From Bdellovibrionales bacterium (GTDB taxonomy: Bacteria > Bdellovibrionota > Bdellovibrionia > Bdellovibrionales > UBA840), in NCBI GenBank assembly GCA_037969075.1, contig JBBKWS010000042.1, forward strand, positions 1 to 32,807: 32,807 nt of DNA. Reading direction: 5' to 3'. Shown here piece by piece: positions 6,924 to 18,886 of the stretch. The position numbers were made by a program, and so were the translations under genes. The number at the start of each line of letters is the position of its first letter. Positions within the stretch are counted from its first letter, which is position 1. A model generated the notes under the pieces. That model made no database searches, was not told where the DNA came from, and saw nothing but the letters and a program-made list of their open reading frames with translations.

Positions 6924-7000
<77 letters not shown>

Positions 7001-7133: not shown

Positions 7134-7679
7134 ATGCCAGCATTCTTACTAGTCTTACTATCACTTAGCACCCAAAATATCTTTGCCGACCCAACGCCAA
7201 TGGCAAACACGATGCCCTTTGTTGGTATTACTACTGACCAGCCAGTATGCTATGGCCGTGAATATAGTCCCGCGCACTTAAAAGCGAAGCCAAAGCAGAC
7301 GGTAAAAAAAATCCAAGCAAAGCTTGAGATCATTCCTGAATACAATCAAAATGTACTTAATCTTGAAGTAACACTTAGAGGAGAAAAAAATCAGTACACT
7401 AATTACCGATCTATCTTCTCATGTTTTCTAGATGATGGTGGAAAATACAGATGCGGGATAGATTGTGACGGTGGTTCTGTAAAAATAAGTATGAGCTCAA
7501 AAAACGAATTAGTAATATCTGTAGAAAATGGATTTATCTTAAGCGGCGGCTGTGGATCTGAAGAAAAGGACGTCTTTTTACAAGCTGTTCTTGGTGGAGA
7601 TGATAAATTCGTAATGACTAAGCTCCCAGCGCAATTTTGTGCAAAATCAGATTGGATCGATAAAATCGATAACAACTAG
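7134..7679 (+). CDS. secreted Cys-containing hypothetical protein (181 aa)
   Basis: Signal peptide. Motifs CYGREYSPAHL..KPKQTV and CGIDCDGG. Six Cys. Confidence 0.8.
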   Translation: MPAFLLVLLSLSTQNIFADPTPMANTMPFVGITTDQPVCYGREYSPAHLKAKPKQTVKKIQAKLEIIPEYNQNVLNLEVTLRGEKNQYTNYRSIFSCFLDDGGKYRCGIDCDGGSVKISMSSKNELVISVENGFILSGGCGSEEKDVFLQAVLGGDDKFVMTKLPAQFCAKSDWIDKIDNN

Positions 7680-8950: not shown

Positions 8951-9577
8951 GTGTACAAAACATTGCTGACTCAACTCATTTTTGTGCTTTTTAGCCCTAG
9001 CCTACATGCCTCTGTATGCCACGATTTATTTGCTACTACAAAGATTCAGAATTCATCACTCTACCAAGTGAAATTATCAAAATTAACTGGAAAAAGTATT
9101 TACCACAACGGCGAATATAGTAATTATTTTAACTTTAATACCATCGCTGTGCTACTTCAAAAACTAGAGAGCGTTTATGGAAAACGTGTTTTGTCCATTG
9201 AGCAGATGAGCCCGCAAGAAGTAAAATCATGGGCGAAAGAAATGACTTTTATATTAAACAAAACAGGATATCTTTTAGATACTTCAAAACCATATCTTGA
9301 ACTGATCTTGGGTCGAATAAATTTGAATCCAGATAAAGTTATTTTTTCAAAAAAAAATGATCTTGTAAGTGCTATTTTAGCTATTAAAAACCCGATGGGT
9401 GGACAGATACGTGTTGAAATCTCAGGTTTTAATGGCGATATCGCCAGTTCACACCTGCAACTACTACGGCAACTAAGAGTACATCTCAAAAAATCAATAA
9501 CTCACTTTGAACACTTAGATGCCAACTACTATATGTGGCTGAACAAAATGAACTATATTTTAGATTACAGTAACTGA
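8951..9577 (+). CDS. secreted hypothetical protein (208 aa)
   Basis: GTG start and a signal peptide ending SLHA followed by CxxLF. No recognisable domain. Confidence 0.7.
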   Translation: MYKTLLTQLIFVLFSPSLHASVCHDLFATTKIQNSSLYQVKLSKLTGKSIYHNGEYSNYFNFNTIAVLLQKLESVYGKRVLSIEQMSPQEVKSWAKEMTFILNKTGYLLDTSKPYLELILGRINLNPDKVIFSKKNDLVSAILAIKNPMGGQIRVEISGFNGDIASSHLQLLRQLRVHLKKSITHFEHLDANYYMWLNKMNYILDYSN

Positions 9578-10841: not shown

Positions 10842-11558
10842 TTATTTACTACAAGATTCGTAGTCCCTATATCTGATGATATAACTCATATTAGTAGTTT
10901 GGCCTAAATTAAAGCTGGTACTATTTGCAGAATAGAATCTAGCCCCTTGCAGATCGCCTGCTGATGTAATTTGAACCCTAATCTCAAAATTTTCCCCATT
11001 AAATGGTCCTATAACAGCTCCATCAGTATTGTACCAATAATGAAAATTACCAATGTATCTATTTATATCTGCATCAACTTGCCTATCAAGCTGATCACTA
11101 CGATCATCGACTAATACAATGTCATCTATACCGTTGTTTCCAGCTGTCGTAATTTTTATAGAGAACTCATTGTCAGCAGAACCCGTGCTGTTATCATTAG
11201 AATCTATATTAGCATAAAAGTTTAACATCAAGCCATCTGGCCCTTCATAGAAAAAATTATGAAGTTCATACCCAACTGGCGTCGGACCATTGATGGGATG
11301 TGCAGAAGCTGAATAATAATTATAGTTAGCAATAGCTGATACAGTTCCACCGTAAGTAACAATATTGCCTAAGTATGTTTGATTGCTATCATCTAGCCAT
11401 ATTCCTAGGTTTTTACCTGGCACACAGATGCTGAGGAAATCATTAGATTCGTTCGTTGGGCTAAAATGAACCTCACTACAATTTTGAAATAGTAGTGCAA
11501 TTACAGCGCTCATTAAGACTATGCCAAACATTACGAATGCATTAGATGTCTTGCTCAT
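10842..11558 (-). CDS. putative lipoprotein with Bdellovibrio-type FQNC lipobox; beta-rich, Asn/Asp-rich
   Basis: Hydrophobic stretch ending LLFQNCS. GAGAGGA RBS favours ATG 11558 (the ORF track starts at 11624). Confidence 0.78.
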   Translation of the reverse strand: MSKTSNAFVMFGIVLMSAVIALLFQNCSEVHFSPTNESNDFLSICVPGKNLGIWLDDSNQTYLGNIVTYGGTVSAIANYNYYSASAHPINGPTPVGYELHNFFYEGPDGLMLNFYANIDSNDNSTGSADNEFSIKITTAGNNGIDDIVLVDDRSDQLDRQVDADINRYIGNFHYWYNTDGAVIGPFNGENFEIRVQITSAGDLQGARFYSANSTSFNLGQTTNMSYIIRYRDYESCSK

Positions 11559-11693
11559 TTCAATCCTCTCCCACTGTCTCTTTTTCGGACGTTTGAACAG
11601 GAAACTTAACAGGCCTGACCCCATATCTTCTATAGAGAATATAAGGCCTAGAAACCTTAGAAATGGCCTGAAATAAGTTTTAAGGCAGCTAAG

Positions 11694-13943
11694 CTATAAA
11701 GACGGCTTTTCTCTGGCAGAGATAAACAACATTGGTATATCGCTTTCTACTAATACACTATCCGTAACACTTCCTAACTTTACAAAACCCTGTCTTTCAA
11801 TCCCACCACGACCGTGAGAAACCATAGCAATTAGGTCACAGTCTAAATCATTTGCGTAATGTAATATAGTTCTGGCCGCTCCAGATCCATCCACAATACA
11901 TTCTATGGCAGTGTTATTATCAAAGTACTTAGCCCTCAACTCATCCAAATACTGTTTTAATGTACTAGCAATATCTGGTCCACCATCAGCCTCTGGAATA
12001 CTTAGTAACGTAACCTTAGATTGGTACACATTGGCCCAAGCCTTCGCGTACGGAAGTACTTGCTCTGCAATCTCTGAACCATCAAGTGGAATCAAAATAT
12101 GATTAAAGCTTGTTGATCTTGATTTCCAATTGTCAGTAGGTCTAAAGATTAGCACTGGAGGCGTAGTCGCATAAATAACTTTATATGCTGTAGATTCAGA
12201 GATAAGTTTGTTTACAGATTTTAAATTACTAGAGGTAAGACAAATCAAATCAAACTTTTGTGTTTCACAAAATGTTGGCAAATCTTTTCTAGCATTCCCA
12301 TCTATAATACGAGGTTCTATTTGCAGATCTTCGCTAGACCAATTTTTAACTAAGTCAGAAACCAATTGTGAAGCTACGTCTTTTTTACCTTTTTCTAAAA
12401 AATGTACTGGCGTGATTTTTGATCCAAACTGCGAAGAAATTTTTATGGCAGAATAAAATGATATATCCGAATTTAAGTTCCCACTAACAGGTACCAATAT
12501 ATTTTTAATTTTATAATTAACATTAAGTTGGTTAGCATTAACATCTAACTGACGAGCATTAATAACGGAGGACAACCTAGAGTCTATAGATTCTGGAGGT
12601 GCCCCTAAACGCTTTTTATAGTAATCAAATACCACATACAAAAGAGGAACCAATATTAAATAACTCCATGCTCCCTCAAAAAATCGTTCTTCAAAAATAA
12701 TGAATGTCGCAAATGTAGCACAAATTGAAGAAAACAAGGTGATTAAAATTCCTATTGTAGACTCAACTGTTTTCTTCTGTCTGTAATATCGTACAAACCT
12801 CTTACAGGCAGACCAACCGGTCATTGATAATAATATAAATACACCCGCCGCATACAGAGCTAAATATGTTTCTTCGTGGGTACCAAAAAATAAAAAGCAC
12901 GCTATAACAACTAATGCCTGAGCCCATGCAGGAAAGGATGGCACATCAAATGTATTTCTCTTACCCCAACGAGCAGGAATATAATGTCTGGCTCTTAAGC
13001 CCAGAGCTAAATTTTGCATACCTTGTGCACTAGCGGCAGCGGCTGACAATAATACAGCTATCCCTATAAGGGTACCTGTATAGGATAACCACGCGGGCAA
13101 AAGAACATCCATAGTTTGTGTAAAGACCGATTTCGTAATATCTGCTGGATTAGACATTTTTAAAATAGCTGGACCAACAATCAGCATAGTAATCACAGTA
13201 GTACCCATAACAATTAGTAAACTGCCATAAGCCTTACGGCTACGTTGTGCCGCGTTTCCTTCATAAGATGCCACAAGATTTGCAAAGATCTCAATCCCCG
13301 TCATCAAAGCAAGAATTCTGGCAAACCCACCCAAGGTAAAATGTAAATGCTCAGAATCAAATGCTGCCATATTAAAATCAGGAAAGTGAAGTCCCTCTTG
13401 CCATATAACTGAGCCAACCATTACCCATAAAAAAAGTAGTATTAATGCAGTTGCTGGGCCAAAAAATTTAGCTGAAATTTTTGGCCCTCGATTTACAGCC
13501 ATAGCGATAAATATGGTAAACCCAACTGCAATTAAACTTCTAGTACTTAGTCCAAACAGCGTTGTATTTAGCATTGGAAGACGATCCACTAAAAAAGTAA
13601 CAAGAGCTGCAATACTAACTAAAAATGTTAACGTATACTCAATAACAGTAATGGCCGCATTTACCTTTACAGCCCAGCCGCCAAACTCCTCTTCACTAAG
13701 CCCACTACCACCACTACCATCCGTGATCCATTTCATTACGTAGCGATACATGGCAGCGACAGTAACCACTGTGAAAACAGCTAGCCAGATAGACACGCCA
13801 AATGTAACCTGGGCAACTCCTGCCCCTACAATTAGTGTTAAAAAAGGACCAAATACATATAGTGGGGAAGTGGCTGGATCACCACCACCTGCAAGCGCAC
13901 CTTGTAATGAGTTTTTTAGTTTATATGATATTGATGCACCCAC
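11694..13943 (-). CDS. APC-superfamily transporter (KUP/KimA-like signature) fused to two universal stress protein domains
   Basis: About 12 TM segments. TM1 GGDPATSPLY, TM6 ALMTGIEIFAN. C-terminal ILVPVSG... and ILIPLDGSEIAEQVLPYA...DLIAMVSHGRGG...LGSVTDSVL. Confidence 0.85.
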   Translation of the reverse strand: MGASISYKLKNSLQGALAGGGDPATSPLYVFGPFLTLIVGAGVAQVTFGVSIWLAVFTVVTVAAMYRYVMKWITDGSGGSGLSEEEFGGWAVKVNAAITVIEYTLTFLVSIAALVTFLVDRLPMLNTTLFGLSTRSLIAVGFTIFIAMAVNRGPKISAKFFGPATALILLFLWVMVGSVIWQEGLHFPDFNMAAFDSEHLHFTLGGFARILALMTGIEIFANLVASYEGNAAQRSRKAYGSLLIVMGTTVITMLIVGPAILKMSNPADITKSVFTQTMDVLLPAWLSYTGTLIGIAVLLSAAAASAQGMQNLALGLRARHYIPARWGKRNTFDVPSFPAWAQALVVIACFLFFGTHEETYLALYAAGVFILLSMTGWSACKRFVRYYRQKKTVESTIGILITLFSSICATFATFIIFEERFFEGAWSYLILVPLLYVVFDYYKKRLGAPPESIDSRLSSVINARQLDVNANQLNVNYKIKNILVPVSGNLNSDISFYSAIKISSQFGSKITPVHFLEKGKKDVASQLVSDLVKNWSSEDLQIEPRIIDGNARKDLPTFCETQKFDLICLTSSNLKSVNKLISESTAYKVIYATTPPVLIFRPTDNWKSRSTSFNHILIPLDGSEIAEQVLPYAKAWANVYQSKVTLLSIPEADGGPDIASTLKQYLDELRAKYFDNNTAIECIVDGSGAARTILHYANDLDCDLIAMVSHGRGGIERQGFVKLGSVTDSVLVESDIPMLFISAREKPSL

Positions 13944-13964
13944 TATGACTCCTCGTGAAATTGC

Positions 13965-14846
13965 TTACTTATTTTGTGTGAAACTGCCACTCTTAATGTG
14001 CAAATCTCTCTGTGGAAATGGAATTTCGACTTTTTCTTCTCTAAAAAGACGGTCTATCTCAAAACGAATATCACTACTAATTTTTTCAATACTCCAAATA
14101 TTAGCGCACCAAAACCTTAAATCAAAATTAAGAGACGAGTCCCCAAAATCCTCAAAGATAGCTTCAGGTGCAGGCTCTGTCATAACCTCTTCTTGGCTTA
14201 ACGCTGCTTTGGCCAACAAATCCCTGACCTTATTAACATCCGAACCGTAAGCTACACCTACGTGGATATGCTGTCTTATCCTTTGTCCCGAAAAACTATC
14301 GCTAACTACTTCTTCAGATATTAACTTTGAATTTGGAATGATGATGGTCACCTCATCACGTGTTTGTATGATCGATGATCTAACGCGTATATCAATAACT
14401 CGCCCGGTGGATGATCCAACTTTAATGATGTCACCTACTTTTACTGGTCTCTCGATAAGGATGATAATGCCAGAAATAAAGTTCTGTGCAATATTTTGCA
14501 AACCAAAACCAATCCCCACCATTAAAACTGCACCAACTGCAGCAAGGGAGTTAATCGAAATGCCCAAATTATCTAGAGCAAACAAAATTCCTATAGCGAT
14601 AATTAAATAACGTGAAAATTTCTCGATCGAGTCTCGAACACCCGAGTCAACACCACGAGCACCCAGCGCCTTGTTAATTGCCTTACCTAAATACTTAGCA
14701 AGATAAATCGTTAAGACAATAACAAGCATGGACATAAAAATACTTGTAACGGAAATCTTCGAACCATTTAGCTGCAACAAAGGTTCGCGTAAAAGGTTCC
14801 AAACTTCTTTTAATTGTTCAGTAATTGTTTTGAATTGATCATTCAT
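13965..14846 (-). CDS. small-conductance mechanosensitive channel, MscS family (MscK C-terminus-like)
   Basis: GIGFGLQNIAQNFISGIIILIERPVKVGD, IPNSKL, VGVAYGSD, FGDSSLNF, IPFPQRDLH. Confidence 0.95.
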   Translation of the reverse strand: MNDQFKTITEQLKEVWNLLREPLLQLNGSKISVTSIFMSMLVIVLTIYLAKYLGKAINKALGARGVDSGVRDSIEKFSRYLIIAIGILFALDNLGISINSLAAVGAVLMVGIGFGLQNIAQNFISGIIILIERPVKVGDIIKVGSSTGRVIDIRVRSSIIQTRDEVTIIIPNSKLISEEVVSDSFSGQRIRQHIHVGVAYGSDVNKVRDLLAKAALSQEEVMTEPAPEAIFEDFGDSSLNFDLRFWCANIWSIEKISSDIRFEIDRLFREEKVEIPFPQRDLHIKSGSFTQNK

Positions 14847-15701
14847 TTACATAACCTCATTTGACGCAGTTGAGTTATTAACTTGAACTGTAGGTTCAAA
14901 AAATGTAGGACGAGTAATTTTATATTGTTTTAAAGCCTCATTTCCGCGAAGCAGAATATCTGTTTGCAAGGCTTTTTCAAATCTGACGTCCATGACATAG
15001 CACTTTACTTTTATTTGCATCGCGGGACGATTGGCAAAATTTAACTCGGTGAGTACAATTGCAACTGGTTTCTTTAAAAAGGCAAATCGGCTCGTAACAG
15101 CAGTTTCGTAGAGTAATTTTTCAGCTTTTGTAATATCAGAATCTAACGACACATGAAAATCAATTTCAATCATCATATCTAAGGCACCAAAGTTTCCTGA
15201 TGATACATATTCAGTGATAAATTTACTATTAGGAATAGTCACTATAGAGTCATCCAAAGTTACTAACTGAACGGCTCTAAGGCCGATAGCTCTAATCTCG
15301 CCATACGTACCCTGAAAAGCAATTCTATCCCCTACTTGAAACGGTCTATCAAATAACAAAATAACTCCAGCAACAACCGAAGCCACCAAATCCTTTAGCG
15401 ATAAACCCAATGCAACGGCTAATGTACCACTTACTGCTAATATAAGAGCCTTGGGAGGGTTAACAATGCCATAAAAAATATATCCCCCGCCCAAGATATA
15501 AATTGCAAAAGATATCGTGGTTATGATCTGTGCGATCAACAACCGACGAGAAGGAATCCGTCTGTTTAGCGCATTACCTATGGAAGATACAAACTTAACA
15601 GCCATACCTAGGCAAACTATACCAAAAATCAGCAGAGCTATCTTTGTAAAGCTAAGTACATCCAATATTCCAGCGGCATTGCTTAAGTCATTTTCATTCA
15701 T
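14847..15701 (-). CDS. second, divergent MscS-family mechanosensitive channel
   Basis: 3 TM. LGLSLKDLVASVVAGVILLFDRPFQVGDRI, GEIRAIGLR, VTIPNSKF. Confidence 0.92.
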   Translation of the reverse strand: MNENDLSNAAGILDVLSFTKIALLIFGIVCLGMAVKFVSSIGNALNRRIPSRRLLIAQIITTISFAIYILGGGYIFYGIVNPPKALILAVSGTLAVALGLSLKDLVASVVAGVILLFDRPFQVGDRIAFQGTYGEIRAIGLRAVQLVTLDDSIVTIPNSKFITEYVSSGNFGALDMMIEIDFHVSLDSDITKAEKLLYETAVTSRFAFLKKPVAIVLTELNFANRPAMQIKVKCYVMDVRFEKALQTDILLRGNEALKQYKITRPTFFEPTVQVNNSTASNEVM

Positions 15702-18700
15702 ATAAAAAATTCTTTCCTATTAAGAAATAGTCTATTACGTATTGAGCTCGTGAGGATATACGAACCCTGTCATTCTCATCTAGCCATACTAAGTTTTTAT
15801 CTTGCGCTTCTTTTAAACACTTTCTTATGGTTGTATCCCCTACATTCGTTATCTGTTTTAATTCTTGCTGTGTTAAGCTGTCGTGCCTTGCAATGGCAGA
15901 AAGTAAAAACAGGGCATCATCACTCATCGAAGCCACTAAGCTAGATCCTATAAATAATGGAACACCAACATGAACCTGCCCATCTGCAGGTGAAGATATT
16001 GCAGAAATCCAATACATTAAAGCTGACCTTGGGTTACCTCTGGACTGTCCCCAAAGTAGTCTAAAAAACTGCCCTTCCGCCTGCTGACCAAAACTGTCAC
16101 CCGCACCATAAGCTTTTATAGAGTCATCAAAAGTACGGCTAAATTTTGTTTGTTGGTGTCTTGCCAAAATCATTTTTTGAATTTCAAAATCTTTCCATTG
16201 TGCTAAGTACATCACTTTTCCATAAAAATGCTCAGCTCCCAAAACTCCTTTTAGATAAGCCCATGAGCGCGAATTGACGCTAAGACACCAATATACATTG
16301 GCTGTTTTTAGAGTAATTACTTCTAAAAATAATTTATACGCCTCAAATCCGCCAATCATGCCTAAGAATAGATTTTGTATATCATCGACAAAAAACACTA
16401 CTGGCTTACCTAAATTACGATCAAACTGTTTAAACTCATCTATTGACGAAATCTTTTCTTCTAGAAGTTCTGACAACCAAGCAAAAAGGGCGTCTGCTGT
16501 AACTACCTTTGATGGTACTCTTTTACTTTTTGTAACACAGTCTTTAGAAACACTAACGCTGATGTGATCAAGAGCTGTTGTTTTGCCCATTCCTCGGTTA
16601 CCTACGATAATCAAAAGATCATCAGTAGATTTTTTATTAACCCAATCAGAGATCGCGTTTATCGCTCGCTCTTCTGTCGAGTTATCTCGGTGAATGTATA
16701 TATCTTTATTGGCAGACAAGTAATAATCAAATGAAGACAAATAATCTTGTGGAGGCGGGCCATAGGTAATCGATTCTTTTTCTGCGCGCTCTAAGCGCTT
16801 CCTTAATACTTCTGATAATAGCCTTTTTACTAAATCAATTCTTACTAAATGAGAAGAGATAAATTTCAATACATCCGAGCTAACCGTGAGCAAAAATAAA
16901 ATTGGCAGTATGAAATTGCTGATCTTTGATTTAAATGCTGGCTGCAACCTATTCCATAAATTAGGAAATCGATATGAAAAAGAAGAACTGATTTCATCCT
17001 TCCATTTCGCCGTCTCAATAAATGTAAAAGCAACATTTACCCAAAAAATTAAATTGGAGAACATCTGGTAAGCTAACGCCCTGCGGACCGTGTCTTCCGT
17101 AATATGCAACAAGATAAATTCAATAAATACCAGTCTTGATATTCTAGTTGCTGATTTTTTTATTCTTACTTTCTGCTGCTTTAAAGTATCTACAGAGTCT
17201 GTAGAAAAAGCTACCTCTAGACATATAGTCAGTAGTAACTTCACCGTGCGATAAATATAGTAGACTTGAAAGTAATACAAGAACATCGCTAATTCTTTTA
17301 GATCAGTATCTTGTATTAAAGATCTAGCAAAGCCAATGCTAATAATCATACCTACAGACGGTACAAATGGATTTAATCTAGCGATCCAAACAGCGAATGT
17401 AGTTCTACGCCTATAATCTAGCATTGATTTTGAGATTAAATCTTTTTTTATTTTATCTAATTTATCTGATGTCCAGCGAAGTATCTTTGTTAAGAAAAAT
17501 GGAATCATTATAAGAATGAATAAAATAAATATTTGCCTAACTAAATCGAGCCAACCATCTAGACCTGAAACAAATTTTGATTTAATTTCTATCCACTTAC
17601 TTAATCCGCCTGCCACAAATCGTAGGGGTACTACGCGAATTTCTCTTAATAAAATTCCTACATTCTTCTCATTAAGACCCCGTGGTCGATCACAGTGAAC
17701 CGCATCACACTTACTTAATAATTGAGCTCGTAATGTTCCAGCATCCTGCAAAAGTTTAAAGTTAGTGACCTTCATATCATCTAGCAGTTTAGTTCTAGCT
17801 TCTATCAATGCCATCTTGCGATTTTCGGCTTTTTTATATTTAACCAAATACTCTTCGTAATTATCTTTATATTTCTCTGATTCTATCTCTAAAATTAAAA
17901 CGCTCGGAAGCTCAACATCAGACTGTAATTCAATATCAGAAAACACTTCTAATAAGTAATCTACTGTCTGCTCCCAAATACCACTCACTTCAGAATAATT
18001 ATAACTGATTTTATTGGCCGATAAATTTACATTATTCTCATACACTGCAGATAATTTAGCCCGCAGCAGCTCTAAGCTATCATCCTTATCTTTTAATTTT
18101 TTTATAAAAGCCAAATGCTCTGTTTCTAAATCAATCATGGTTTTATCTACAGCCGATTTCGCTGTTAAAATTGATTCTTCAACACTGTTGTTTAACTCTG
18201 CTGATTGTTTTTCGGCATCTTGTAACCCTGCCTGCGCCTCTTCTAAAGCTTGCTGGCTGTTTGATAATTGATTTTTTAAGCCGTACTTATCATCTATCTT
18301 ATTTCTTGTTGTTTGATAGTTTGATATAAGATTGTCTCTTTTATCATTTTCTATTTTTAAAAAATCAACCTTCTTAAGGTTAATATTAGCTTGCATGGAT
18401 TTTACTGATTCAATTACGGCAATCACTTCTTTATCATTACAGTTGTCGTAACTTTTAAATTCAGCACTTAGCTCTTCTGCATCAGCAAAAATTCTAAGAC
18501 TAAGTTCTTTAATACGTTTTTTGATTTCATCAGGCTTAGACAGATCAACCTGAAACAAAACTTGCGTTGGTACACGGTAATCACTTCCCTTGCCCATTAG
18601 GGTATCAAGACTTAGCCCCATCTTCTCAAGCGTGCCTTTTCTCTCAGTTAGCTCACTTAATGCATTCTCACAAACAATAGCTTCAATGACCTTGGTTTTT

Positions 18701-18774
18701 TTATCTGCCGCGAGGCAAGTAAGCGAGAAATTGCTAACAGCAAAGAAGGTGATAAGTATATACAGATGTTTCAT
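15694..18774 (-). CDS. large membrane protein: signal peptide, periplasmic coiled coil, ~6 TM, C-terminal P-loop NTPase (STAND/AAA+-like) and winged helix
   Basis: Signal peptide from ATG 18774 (the ORF track starts at 18804). Walker A GNRGMGKTT (16576-16602), Walker B FFVDD (16381-16395), SRGNP motif, HTH-like C-terminus. 8-nt overlap with the first MscS gene. Confidence 0.82.
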   Translation of the reverse strand: MKHLYILITFFAVSNFSLTCLAADKKTKVIEAIVCENALSELTERKGTLEKMGLSLDTLMGKGSDYRVPTQVLFQVDLSKPDEIKKRIKELSLRIFADAEELSAEFKSYDNCNDKEVIAVIESVKSMQANINLKKVDFLKIENDKRDNLISNYQTTRNKIDDKYGLKNQLSNSQQALEEAQAGLQDAEKQSAELNNSVEESILTAKSAVDKTMIDLETEHLAFIKKLKDKDDSLELLRAKLSAVYENNVNLSANKISYNYSEVSGIWEQTVDYLLEVFSDIELQSDVELPSVLILEIESEKYKDNYEEYLVKYKKAENRKMALIEARTKLLDDMKVTNFKLLQDAGTLRAQLLSKCDAVHCDRPRGLNEKNVGILLREIRVVPLRFVAGGLSKWIEIKSKFVSGLDGWLDLVRQIFILFILIMIPFFLTKILRWTSDKLDKIKKDLISKSMLDYRRRTTFAVWIARLNPFVPSVGMIISIGFARSLIQDTDLKELAMFLYYFQVYYIYRTVKLLLTICLEVAFSTDSVDTLKQQKVRIKKSATRISRLVFIEFILLHITEDTVRRALAYQMFSNLIFWVNVAFTFIETAKWKDEISSSFSYRFPNLWNRLQPAFKSKISNFILPILFLLTVSSDVLKFISSHLVRIDLVKRLLSEVLRKRLERAEKESITYGPPPQDYLSSFDYYLSANKDIYIHRDNSTEERAINAISDWVNKKSTDDLLIIVGNRGMGKTTALDHISVSVSKDCVTKSKRVPSKVVTADALFAWLSELLEEKISSIDEFKQFDRNLGKPVVFFVDDIQNLFLGMIGGFEAYKLFLEVITLKTANVYWCLSVNSRSWAYLKGVLGAEHFYGKVMYLAQWKDFEIQKMILARHQQTKFSRTFDDSIKAYGAGDSFGQQAEGQFFRLLWGQSRGNPRSALMYWISAISSPADGQVHVGVPLFIGSSLVASMSDDALFLLSAIARHDSLTQQELKQITNVGDTTIRKCLKEAQDKNLVWLDENDRVRISSRAQYVIDYFLIGKNFLYE

Positions 18775-18886
18775 CGTAAAAGAATAGCACAGTAGACCAT
18801 TCATTCAATCTATGACGTATTGCCAATAGCCATAACGCATATCAGCGCAAGCCACCAAACTTAATGTTAAAAAATCTCTATCCATA

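Follow-up and report, generated by a model that had tools for sequence, protein, structure and literature searches.

We analyzed a 32,807-nt stretch of DNA from a Bdellovibrionales bacterium (contig JBBKWS010000042.1; here called the window), in which four open reading frames (ORFs) of the same orientation lie on the minus strand at 18804..11694. They encode a predicted nucleoside triphosphatase (NTPase), two MscS-type channels (MscS1 and MscS2) and a transporter that joins an APC permease to Usp domains (APC-USP). The ORF coordinates confirm the junctions of −8, 0 and 21 nt (the first an 8-nt overlap) that had been reported in a first-pass annotation of this DNA, which took the four genes as parts of a single membrane machine. 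Our analysis points to a smaller unit, in which the NTPase would be an undescribed nucleotide-controlled partner subunit of one type of MscS channel. The genes and their main regions are as follows.

18804-15694, minus strand: gene 1, NTPase, 1036 aa by the ORF call; first core gene.
17569..18672, minus strand: NTPase aa 45-412, helical-bundle domain that follows a hydrophobic N-terminal helix (from secondary structure).
16843..17568, minus strand: NTPase aa 413-654, membrane region of about six hydrophobic helices (from family-averaged hydropathy and the helices of the model).
15955..16758, minus strand: NTPase aa 683-950, AAA+-type nucleotide-binding and helical domains (from alignment motifs and a fold match).
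15697..15942, minus strand: NTPase aa 955-1036, winged-helix domain and conserved C-terminal tail (from a MarR_2 match under the cut-off and a fold match).
15701-14847, minus strand: gene 2, MscS1, 284 aa; second core gene, overlapping the NTPase stop by 8 nt.
14934..15182, minus strand: MscS1 aa 174-256, cytoplasmic alpha/beta (cage) region, the predicted docking site of the NTPase.
14846-13965, minus strand: gene 3, MscS2, 293 aa; accessory.
13943-11694, minus strand: gene 4, APC-USP, 749 aa; accessory, with a GTG start preceded by a GAGGAG site.

The protein database entry for gene 1 begins at Met11 (18774), giving a product of 1026 aa, and Met11 is the probable start.

Of 93 distinct loci, 89 have an MscS gene as the next gene after the NTPase, and the other four run out at contig edges. 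Duplicates were removed from this count, which also excludes three weak matches (L098, L099 and L116) and two plasmid loci (L101 and L102); another locus, L171, came after the count. All four are weak matches or of another kind: L098 and L099 are ClpB-like proteins, L116 is a weak 352-aa match with no MscS, and L171 is an AAA_22-OmpA protein. The 8-nt overlap at the junction recurs in 43 of 62 complete related pairs, far above chance. Judged from this arrangement of their sequences, the NTPase and MscS1 genes are translationally coupled and travel together.

The linkage also holds in the reverse direction. Within a sample of 301 genomes of the order, an MscS1-type channel (E ≤ 1e-60) is present in 37, all of which carry the NTPase, and 37 of the 38 NTPase genomes (E ≤ 3e-41) have an MscS1-type channel, the exception being an NTPase at a contig end. 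The two genes are adjacent on one contig in 35 of the 37 genomes that have both and are split across contigs in the other 2. Outside the order, the pair occurs in 13 of 14 NTPase matches among 401 genomes of a second phylum, in 6 of 7 among 251 genomes of a third phylum, and on two alphaproteobacterial plasmids (Caulobacter and Novosphingobium) at 19-24% identity. The trees of the NTPase and MscS1 agree (Mantel r = 0.947), the NTPase tree containing 18 of the 20 supported splits of the channel tree; this speaks for joint inheritance only and not for binding.

Gene order, the reverse test and the predicted interface described below all tie the NTPase to an MscS channel, as first proposed. The proposal stands only in part, since MscS1 is the constant neighbor of NTPase homologues while the second MscS and APC-USP are missing from most loci. 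Four-gene conservation was accordingly rejected: only the NTPase and MscS1 are constant across loci, the conserved unit is two genes, and MscS2 and APC-USP are accessory genes rather than fixed subunits.

The NTPase belongs to a large family, with 306 representatives at E ≤ 1e-30, a number that rises to 2152 at E ≤ 0.001, and its closest named relatives are from Bdellovibrionales. No named family of Pfam, NCBIfam or PADLOC (nSTAND3, AAA_22 and Avs among them) matched it above a curated cut-off: Pfam returned weak nSTAND3, AAA_22 and MarR_2 matches, all under cut-off, NCBIfam returned none and PADLOC a single weak PtuA match (E 3.6e-4). A sequence search of the PDB gave coiled-coil noise only. 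A fold search with its AlphaFold2 model (pLDDT 89.2, pTM 0.71) placed Cdc6/ORC1 first (Z 15.8; root-mean-square deviation, rmsd, 3.6; 246 aligned residues), followed by BrxC, TnsC, the archaeal ATPases PAB2304 and SSO1545, MalT and NLRs. The C-terminal domain matches a MarR-type winged helix-turn-helix fold (Z 12.0).

The motifs of active P-loop AAA+ ATPases (a Walker A of the form GxxxxGK[ST], a Walker B acid and a sensor-1 polar residue) are all present. Walker A lies at residues 735-742, and 136 of 144 aligned homologues keep it intact, the Walker B pair is Asp807-Asp808 (D807 in 142), and Asn844 is kept in 120; in the helical domain the sequence G923-N-P925-R926 forms a GxP motif whose G923 and P925 are found in 144 of 144 homologues, with R926 in 103. 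PMC6468293 describes the core of STAND proteins (the NOD) as an AAA+ nucleotide-binding domain and helical domain (NBD-HD) fused to a C-terminal winged helix (WHD), with a conserved GxP motif in the helical domain and, in most STANDs, an arm and a repeat sensor after the NOD. Residues 683-1036 of the model reproduce the NBD-HD-WHD layout. The WHD extends to the C-terminus at residue 1036, so that the arm and repeat sensor are absent, and alignment columns 703-709 contain no conserved G-R-E of the N-terminal hhGRExE motif of STAND proteins. The suggested STAND identity is thus borne out in domain order and GxP motif and fails in the sensor, and Cdc6/ORC1, which has the same layout, scores highest; because the arm and repeat sensor are lacking, the protein is best called STAND-like, not a typical STAND. 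In STAND NTPases an inducer triggers an ADP/ATP switch with multimerization. Compared with Cdc6/Orc1, PAB2304, SSO1545, MalT and STAND NODs, the order and fold of the NBD-HD-WHD module (Z 15.8 to 12.8) and the invariant GxP are shared. Unlike Cdc6/Orc1 and STAND modules, the NTPase is membrane-anchored, lacks an arm and a repeat sensor behind the WHD, and has a channel, not DNA, as its predicted target.

The helical bundle at aa 45-412 is probably periplasmic. It is variable and missing in some relatives, and family members range from 417 to 1089 aa. Folded alone (pLDDT 84.3), the N-terminal part resembled generic helical bundles only (best Z 13.5, rmsd 3.1, 175 aligned residues), and a Foldseek search with this model gave no match at E ≤ 0.001. 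Two cysteines, at aa 45 and 122 (window 18440-18672, minus strand), recur among the long proteins, in 80 and 89 of 144 alignment rows with mostly gaps in the others, and likely form a periplasmic disulfide.

MscS1 has a Pfam MS_channel_2nd match above cut-off, contains the MscS beta-domain and pore helix, and aligns to solved MscS channels; MscS2 shares this beta-domain and pore helix, and both align with E. coli MscS, YnaI and T. tengcongensis MscS. MscS1 differs from E. coli MscS and its relatives by an invariant signature of its own and by its fixed NTPase gene. Its family alignment has 52% mean column identity and a conserved pore-helix signature, Lys103-Asp104. We described the partner channels by 21 signature positions: 85 of 86 partner rows match at least 15 of them (the miss is a frame-broken fragment), compared to 1-8 in 15 other channel rows, a test that is partly circular in that the positions were picked from the partner alignment. 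In a channel tree of 64 rows, from which 42 partner rows, L153 and one duplicate were excluded, 41 partner channels form one branch with support 95, and the branch that holds all 43 has a support of only 76.

We next consider where the two proteins could meet. A complex prediction with NTPase residues 387-1036 and MscS1, each supplied with a 63-row alignment, docked the NTPase on the cage domain with a score of 0.68, compared to 0.00 for the best of three controls. At least 95% of contacts are shared between the runs, and the partner pLDDT is 77 or higher. Of 157 solved complexes, 116 reach the mark for this score, as do 2 of 215 mismatched pairs, rates that hold only roughly here because our own alignments were used. 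To our knowledge, no complex of this kind has been solved on which the predictor could have drawn for this score. On the NTPase side the predicted contacts are at residues 815-820, 850-856, 966-970, 985-987 and 1031-1036, and on the MscS1 side at 174-175, 196-212, 237-238 and 248-256, within the cytoplasmic alpha/beta domain. Conservation is higher in the interface columns than elsewhere (0.64 versus 0.45 in the NTPase; 0.75 versus 0.61 for the rest of the domain in MscS1), a comparison that is not independent of the prediction, as the same alignments fed the complex model. The prediction supports binding of the NTPase to the MscS1 cytoplasmic alpha/beta cage domain. In E. coli, the alpha/beta domain of MscS binds polymerized FtsZ, a GTPase unlinked to the channel and the only cage partner that we came across, and the C-terminal region of MscS takes on different shapes when the channel is activated or inactivated (PMC4440785).

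The relatives show how the pair varies. A distant subfamily of six loci (L093:1599-9345, L094-L097 and L100) has the order trkA, trkH, a CPA antiporter fused to the NTPase-WHD module (about 1400 aa) and a short MscS of 241-257 aa, and in front of the operon lies an ORF of 430-450 aa that has no Pfam match; a seventh locus, L092, encodes a 969-aa NTPase form with no antiporter match. Elsewhere, soluble NTPase forms of 417-423 aa with no membrane-like segment (L154:9476-10729 and L170:1498-2769) also precede an MscS gene. From the soluble and antiporter-fused forms it follows that the constant element is the cytoplasmic module plus the channel and that the N-terminal part is exchangeable. These short forms weaken the earlier notion of a periplasm-sensing NTPase. 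An apparent fusion of the NTPase C-terminus to MscS in a database protein (P0171) was set aside as a probable frameshift artefact, as it seems to come from a contig that also splits the NTPase (both 4467 bases).

The genes around the pair agree with the ion or osmotic setting that had been suggested for it. Within two genes of the pair, 32 of 114 co-oriented neighbors are channels or ion-type transporters (MscS 7, TrkH 7, TrkA 6, APC-USP 3, other APC 3, K+ channel 2, and one each of a Na/Ca exchanger, CitMHS-TrkA_C, CorA and Amt), compared to 4 of 145 farther ORFs (145 scanned of 411). Six Proton_antipo_M neighbors were not counted as ion transporters, being nuoL-M-N-like.

The explanation that we favor, with a probability of roughly 0.55, is that the NTPase serves as a dedicated auxiliary subunit holding the MscS1 cage and that its nucleotide state tunes channel opening or inactivation in the service of ion or turgor control. 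In this mechanism, the AAA+ core, winged helix and C-terminal tail are predicted to bind the outer face of the cage domain, and several NTPase copies would surround the heptameric cage, their membrane helices and helical bundles lying next to the channel. The ATP or ADP state of the module would then shift MscS1 among closed, openable and inactivated states, which could couple tension-gated solute release to the energy state or to some signal that the variable N-terminal part detects. MscS2 and the KimA-like APC-USP would be co-transcribed ion or turgor genes recruited in a few lineages, as other lineages recruited TrkAH, cation/proton antiporters, K+ channels and further genes beside the pair. 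More tentatively, and with somewhat less confidence than even odds, the pair could represent an unnamed and widespread MscS class in which an NTPase ring on the cytoplasmic cage acts as an ATP/ADP switch, with exchangeable N-terminal modules (a periplasmic bundle, an antiporter or none) feeding in signals.

Several observations weigh against this explanation. The related genomes and loci are not independent of each other, and the complex was predicted 1:1, with no heptamer, membrane or nucleotide. Walker A is degenerate in 8 of 144 homologues, and neither L154 nor a 786-aa form at L158 has a standard Walker A match, so ATP use is not universal in the family. No invariant Arg stands in the stretch where an arginine finger is expected: R862 is found in 69 of 144 homologues and is Gly here. 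The channels beside antiporter-fused NTPases match only 2-6 of the 21 signature positions, and the interface there may therefore differ. Finally, ion-transport neighbors are a tendency and not a rule, because 13 of the 32 come from one related subfamily, the scan was made at 1e-6 and its control at a stricter 1e-12, and such a neighbor besides MscS1 exists at no more than 22 of 93 loci, 7 of the 22 being one related subfamily; the AA_permease neighbors may also carry amino acids.

Among the alternatives, two are about equally unlikely. The NTPase could be an assembly, remodelling or localising factor that builds, recycles or positions MscS1 heptamers with no moment-to-moment gating. Such a factor would have the same gene linkage and predicted interface, and the best folds (Cdc6/ORC1, TnsC and clamp loaders) belong to loaders and remodellers. 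However, known MscS channels assemble with no such factor, and the variable N-terminal part, with an antiporter in one subfamily, suits signal input better than it suits a chaperone.

Alternatively, information could flow in reverse, with MscS1 sensing tension and the movement of its cage switching the NTPase, which would act on a neighboring transporter or on another target, for example a fused antiporter or, via its winged helix, DNA. The shape changes of the MscS C-terminal region, the subfamily in which the NTPase is itself fused to a CPA antiporter encoded after trkA-trkH, and the recurrence of transporter neighbors are all in keeping with this direction. Most loci, however, have no linked transporter, and the winged helix lies in the predicted channel interface, which argues against DNA binding.

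We consider it considerably less probable that the pair is an NLR-like anti-phage system, in which the periplasmic bundle senses infection, the NTPase oligomerizes and the channel is forced open to depolarize the cell. The STAND-like core with its GxP and WHD, the patchy distribution (38 of 301, 14 of 401 and 7 of 251 genomes) and the carriage of the pair on two plasmids could be read in this way. Against it, PADLOC found one weak generic AAA match in the four operon genes and 5 matches, all to generic domains, in 145 flanking ORFs; the NTPase has no matches in annotated phages or viral contigs; and a repeat sensor is lacking. The channel shows high conservation, the GC and GC3 of the operon are similar to those of the genome (0.369 versus 0.378), and the neighbors are ion-transport genes or, as in the flanks of this operon, housekeeping genes (a pseudouridine synthase, an EEP nuclease and a DEAD helicase). 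The defence role raised at first is not supported by these searches.

It is very improbable that the four products form one complex, in which the NTPase, a mixed MscS1/MscS2 pore and a KUP-USP importer work together. The tight gene junctions and the recurrence of a second MscS near the pair in several lineages favor such a complex, as does the occurrence of APC-USP orthologues in 4 of 301 genomes of the order, always at an NTPase-MscS1 locus (4 of 4). The full four-gene order, however, is found in only 2 of 38 NTPase genomes of this sample; the loci with the complete order are those of G000 and G050 (L014 and L162, overlapping within MscS2) together with L032 and its near copy L117. MscS2 is missing from most NTPase loci, has 3 of the 21 partner signature positions and groups with non-partner channels in the 64-row tree, where the second channels of other loci fall in several different groups. 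The nearest Atlas cluster of APC-USP is commonest in Chloroflexota. The two-subunit pore of the first-pass annotation is not supported by these counts.

Equally remote is an ATP-driven exporter or importer with MscS1 as the pore for a specific solute, for which the intact Walker motifs and the distinct Lys103-Asp104 signature could speak, but which has no linked substrate-related gene, no conserved arginine finger that we found and no known precedent.

The auxiliary-subunit explanation can be set beside several known systems. The NTPase and MscS1 together have a layout similar to that of MscK/MscM (periplasmic helices, extra membrane helices and an MscS core), but the pair is split in two chains and its AAA+-WHD module is not in MscK. 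On the idea of a split MscK, the NTPase N-terminal model compared with MscK gave only Foldseek E-values of 0.5-1.0 and a TM-score of about 0.13, and gene 1 has no MscK profile match, results that speak neither for nor against it. In KtrAB and TrkAH, a nucleotide-binding RCK ring sits on a K+ channel. The likeness is that of a cytoplasmic nucleotide-binding protein regulating an ion pore, and trkA-trkH precede one NTPase subfamily, but the folds are unrelated on both sides (AAA+ versus RCK; MscS versus SKT).

In the usual view, an MscS channel is a valve that works alone under the control of membrane tension, and the role of its large cytoplasmic cage is a long-standing question. A co-inherited NTPase that is predicted to sit on the cage makes this role directly testable with two genes. 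If the explanation is correct, MscS gating could follow a ligand or the energy state through a separate enzyme subunit, a channel would be added to the targets of Cdc6/STAND-like switches, and the several MscS paralogues kept by many bacteria may be partly accounted for. We found no description of the NTPase-MscS1 pair in full-text literature searches, and a comparative-genomics table or supplement may already list it; the accessible part of a paper on Haloarchaea (PMC4230888) does not describe it.

The accessory genes have recognizable relatives. MscS2 carries Pfam MscS domains above cut-off, and its best NCBIfam match is the C-terminal part of MscK (E 1.6e-64, under the cut-off), which makes it a small channel resembling the MscK core. 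The description of gene 4 as a KUP-like transporter fused to USP was correct: it has a Pfam AA_permease_2 domain and two Usp domains, and its closest solved structure is KimA (6s3k, E 1.9e-7), the KUP-family transporter of Bacillus subtilis. Key KimA residues are E233 (proton coupling), Y377, T121, T230 and D117 (PMC6994465). In the alignment, E218 and Y364 of APC-USP correspond to the proton-coupling Glu E233 and the gate Tyr Y377, T106 and T215 to T121 and T230, and E102 replaces D117. D22 and Y29 match D36 and Y43 of KimA (the K+-binding Asp and outer-gate Tyr of helix 1) by spacing only; both are kept in the orthologues examined, and the alignment to KimA starts after both and is shifted by two residues. 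From these residues, APC-USP is likely a K+/H+ importer (symporter). It differs from KimA by its two USP domains and by being accessory to the NTPase-MscS1 module, and we found no APC-USP matches in plasmids and viral contigs.

Other arrangements were seen at single loci or in single lineages. A Phenol_MetA_deg gene (outer-membrane barrel-type, 240-280 aa) directly follows MscS1 in six loci (L037, L039, L047, L051, L053 and L120), and its product could be an outer-membrane partner in one lineage. In one genus-level group (L089-L091), the pair stands directly behind the nuoL-M-N-like (Proton_antipo_M) genes. One cluster (L146:3006-12577) holds an MscS, the NTPase, MscS1, a third MscS, CorA, a Na/H exchanger and a fourth MscS-like gene, and another (L155:6021-12984) the NTPase, MscS1, a K+ channel with a TrkA_N domain and two more MscS genes. 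ESM Atlas clusters contain look-alikes of the NTPase-WHD module, 300-400 aa in length, from Bacteroidota, Actinomycetota and archaea.

A search for promoter-like sites found no excess over shuffled sequences (30 versus 38). Behind the operon by 69 nt and on the same strand, a 260-aa ORF (10842-11624, minus strand) has a lipoprotein-like N-terminus and no family match, and it was not seen as a conserved neighbor of the pair. Farther away, a tRNA-Pro(TGG) at 6924-7000 is followed by ORFs with no Pfam match (7134-7679 and 8951-9577) and an RNase H-like gene, a region that is possibly a small integration site.

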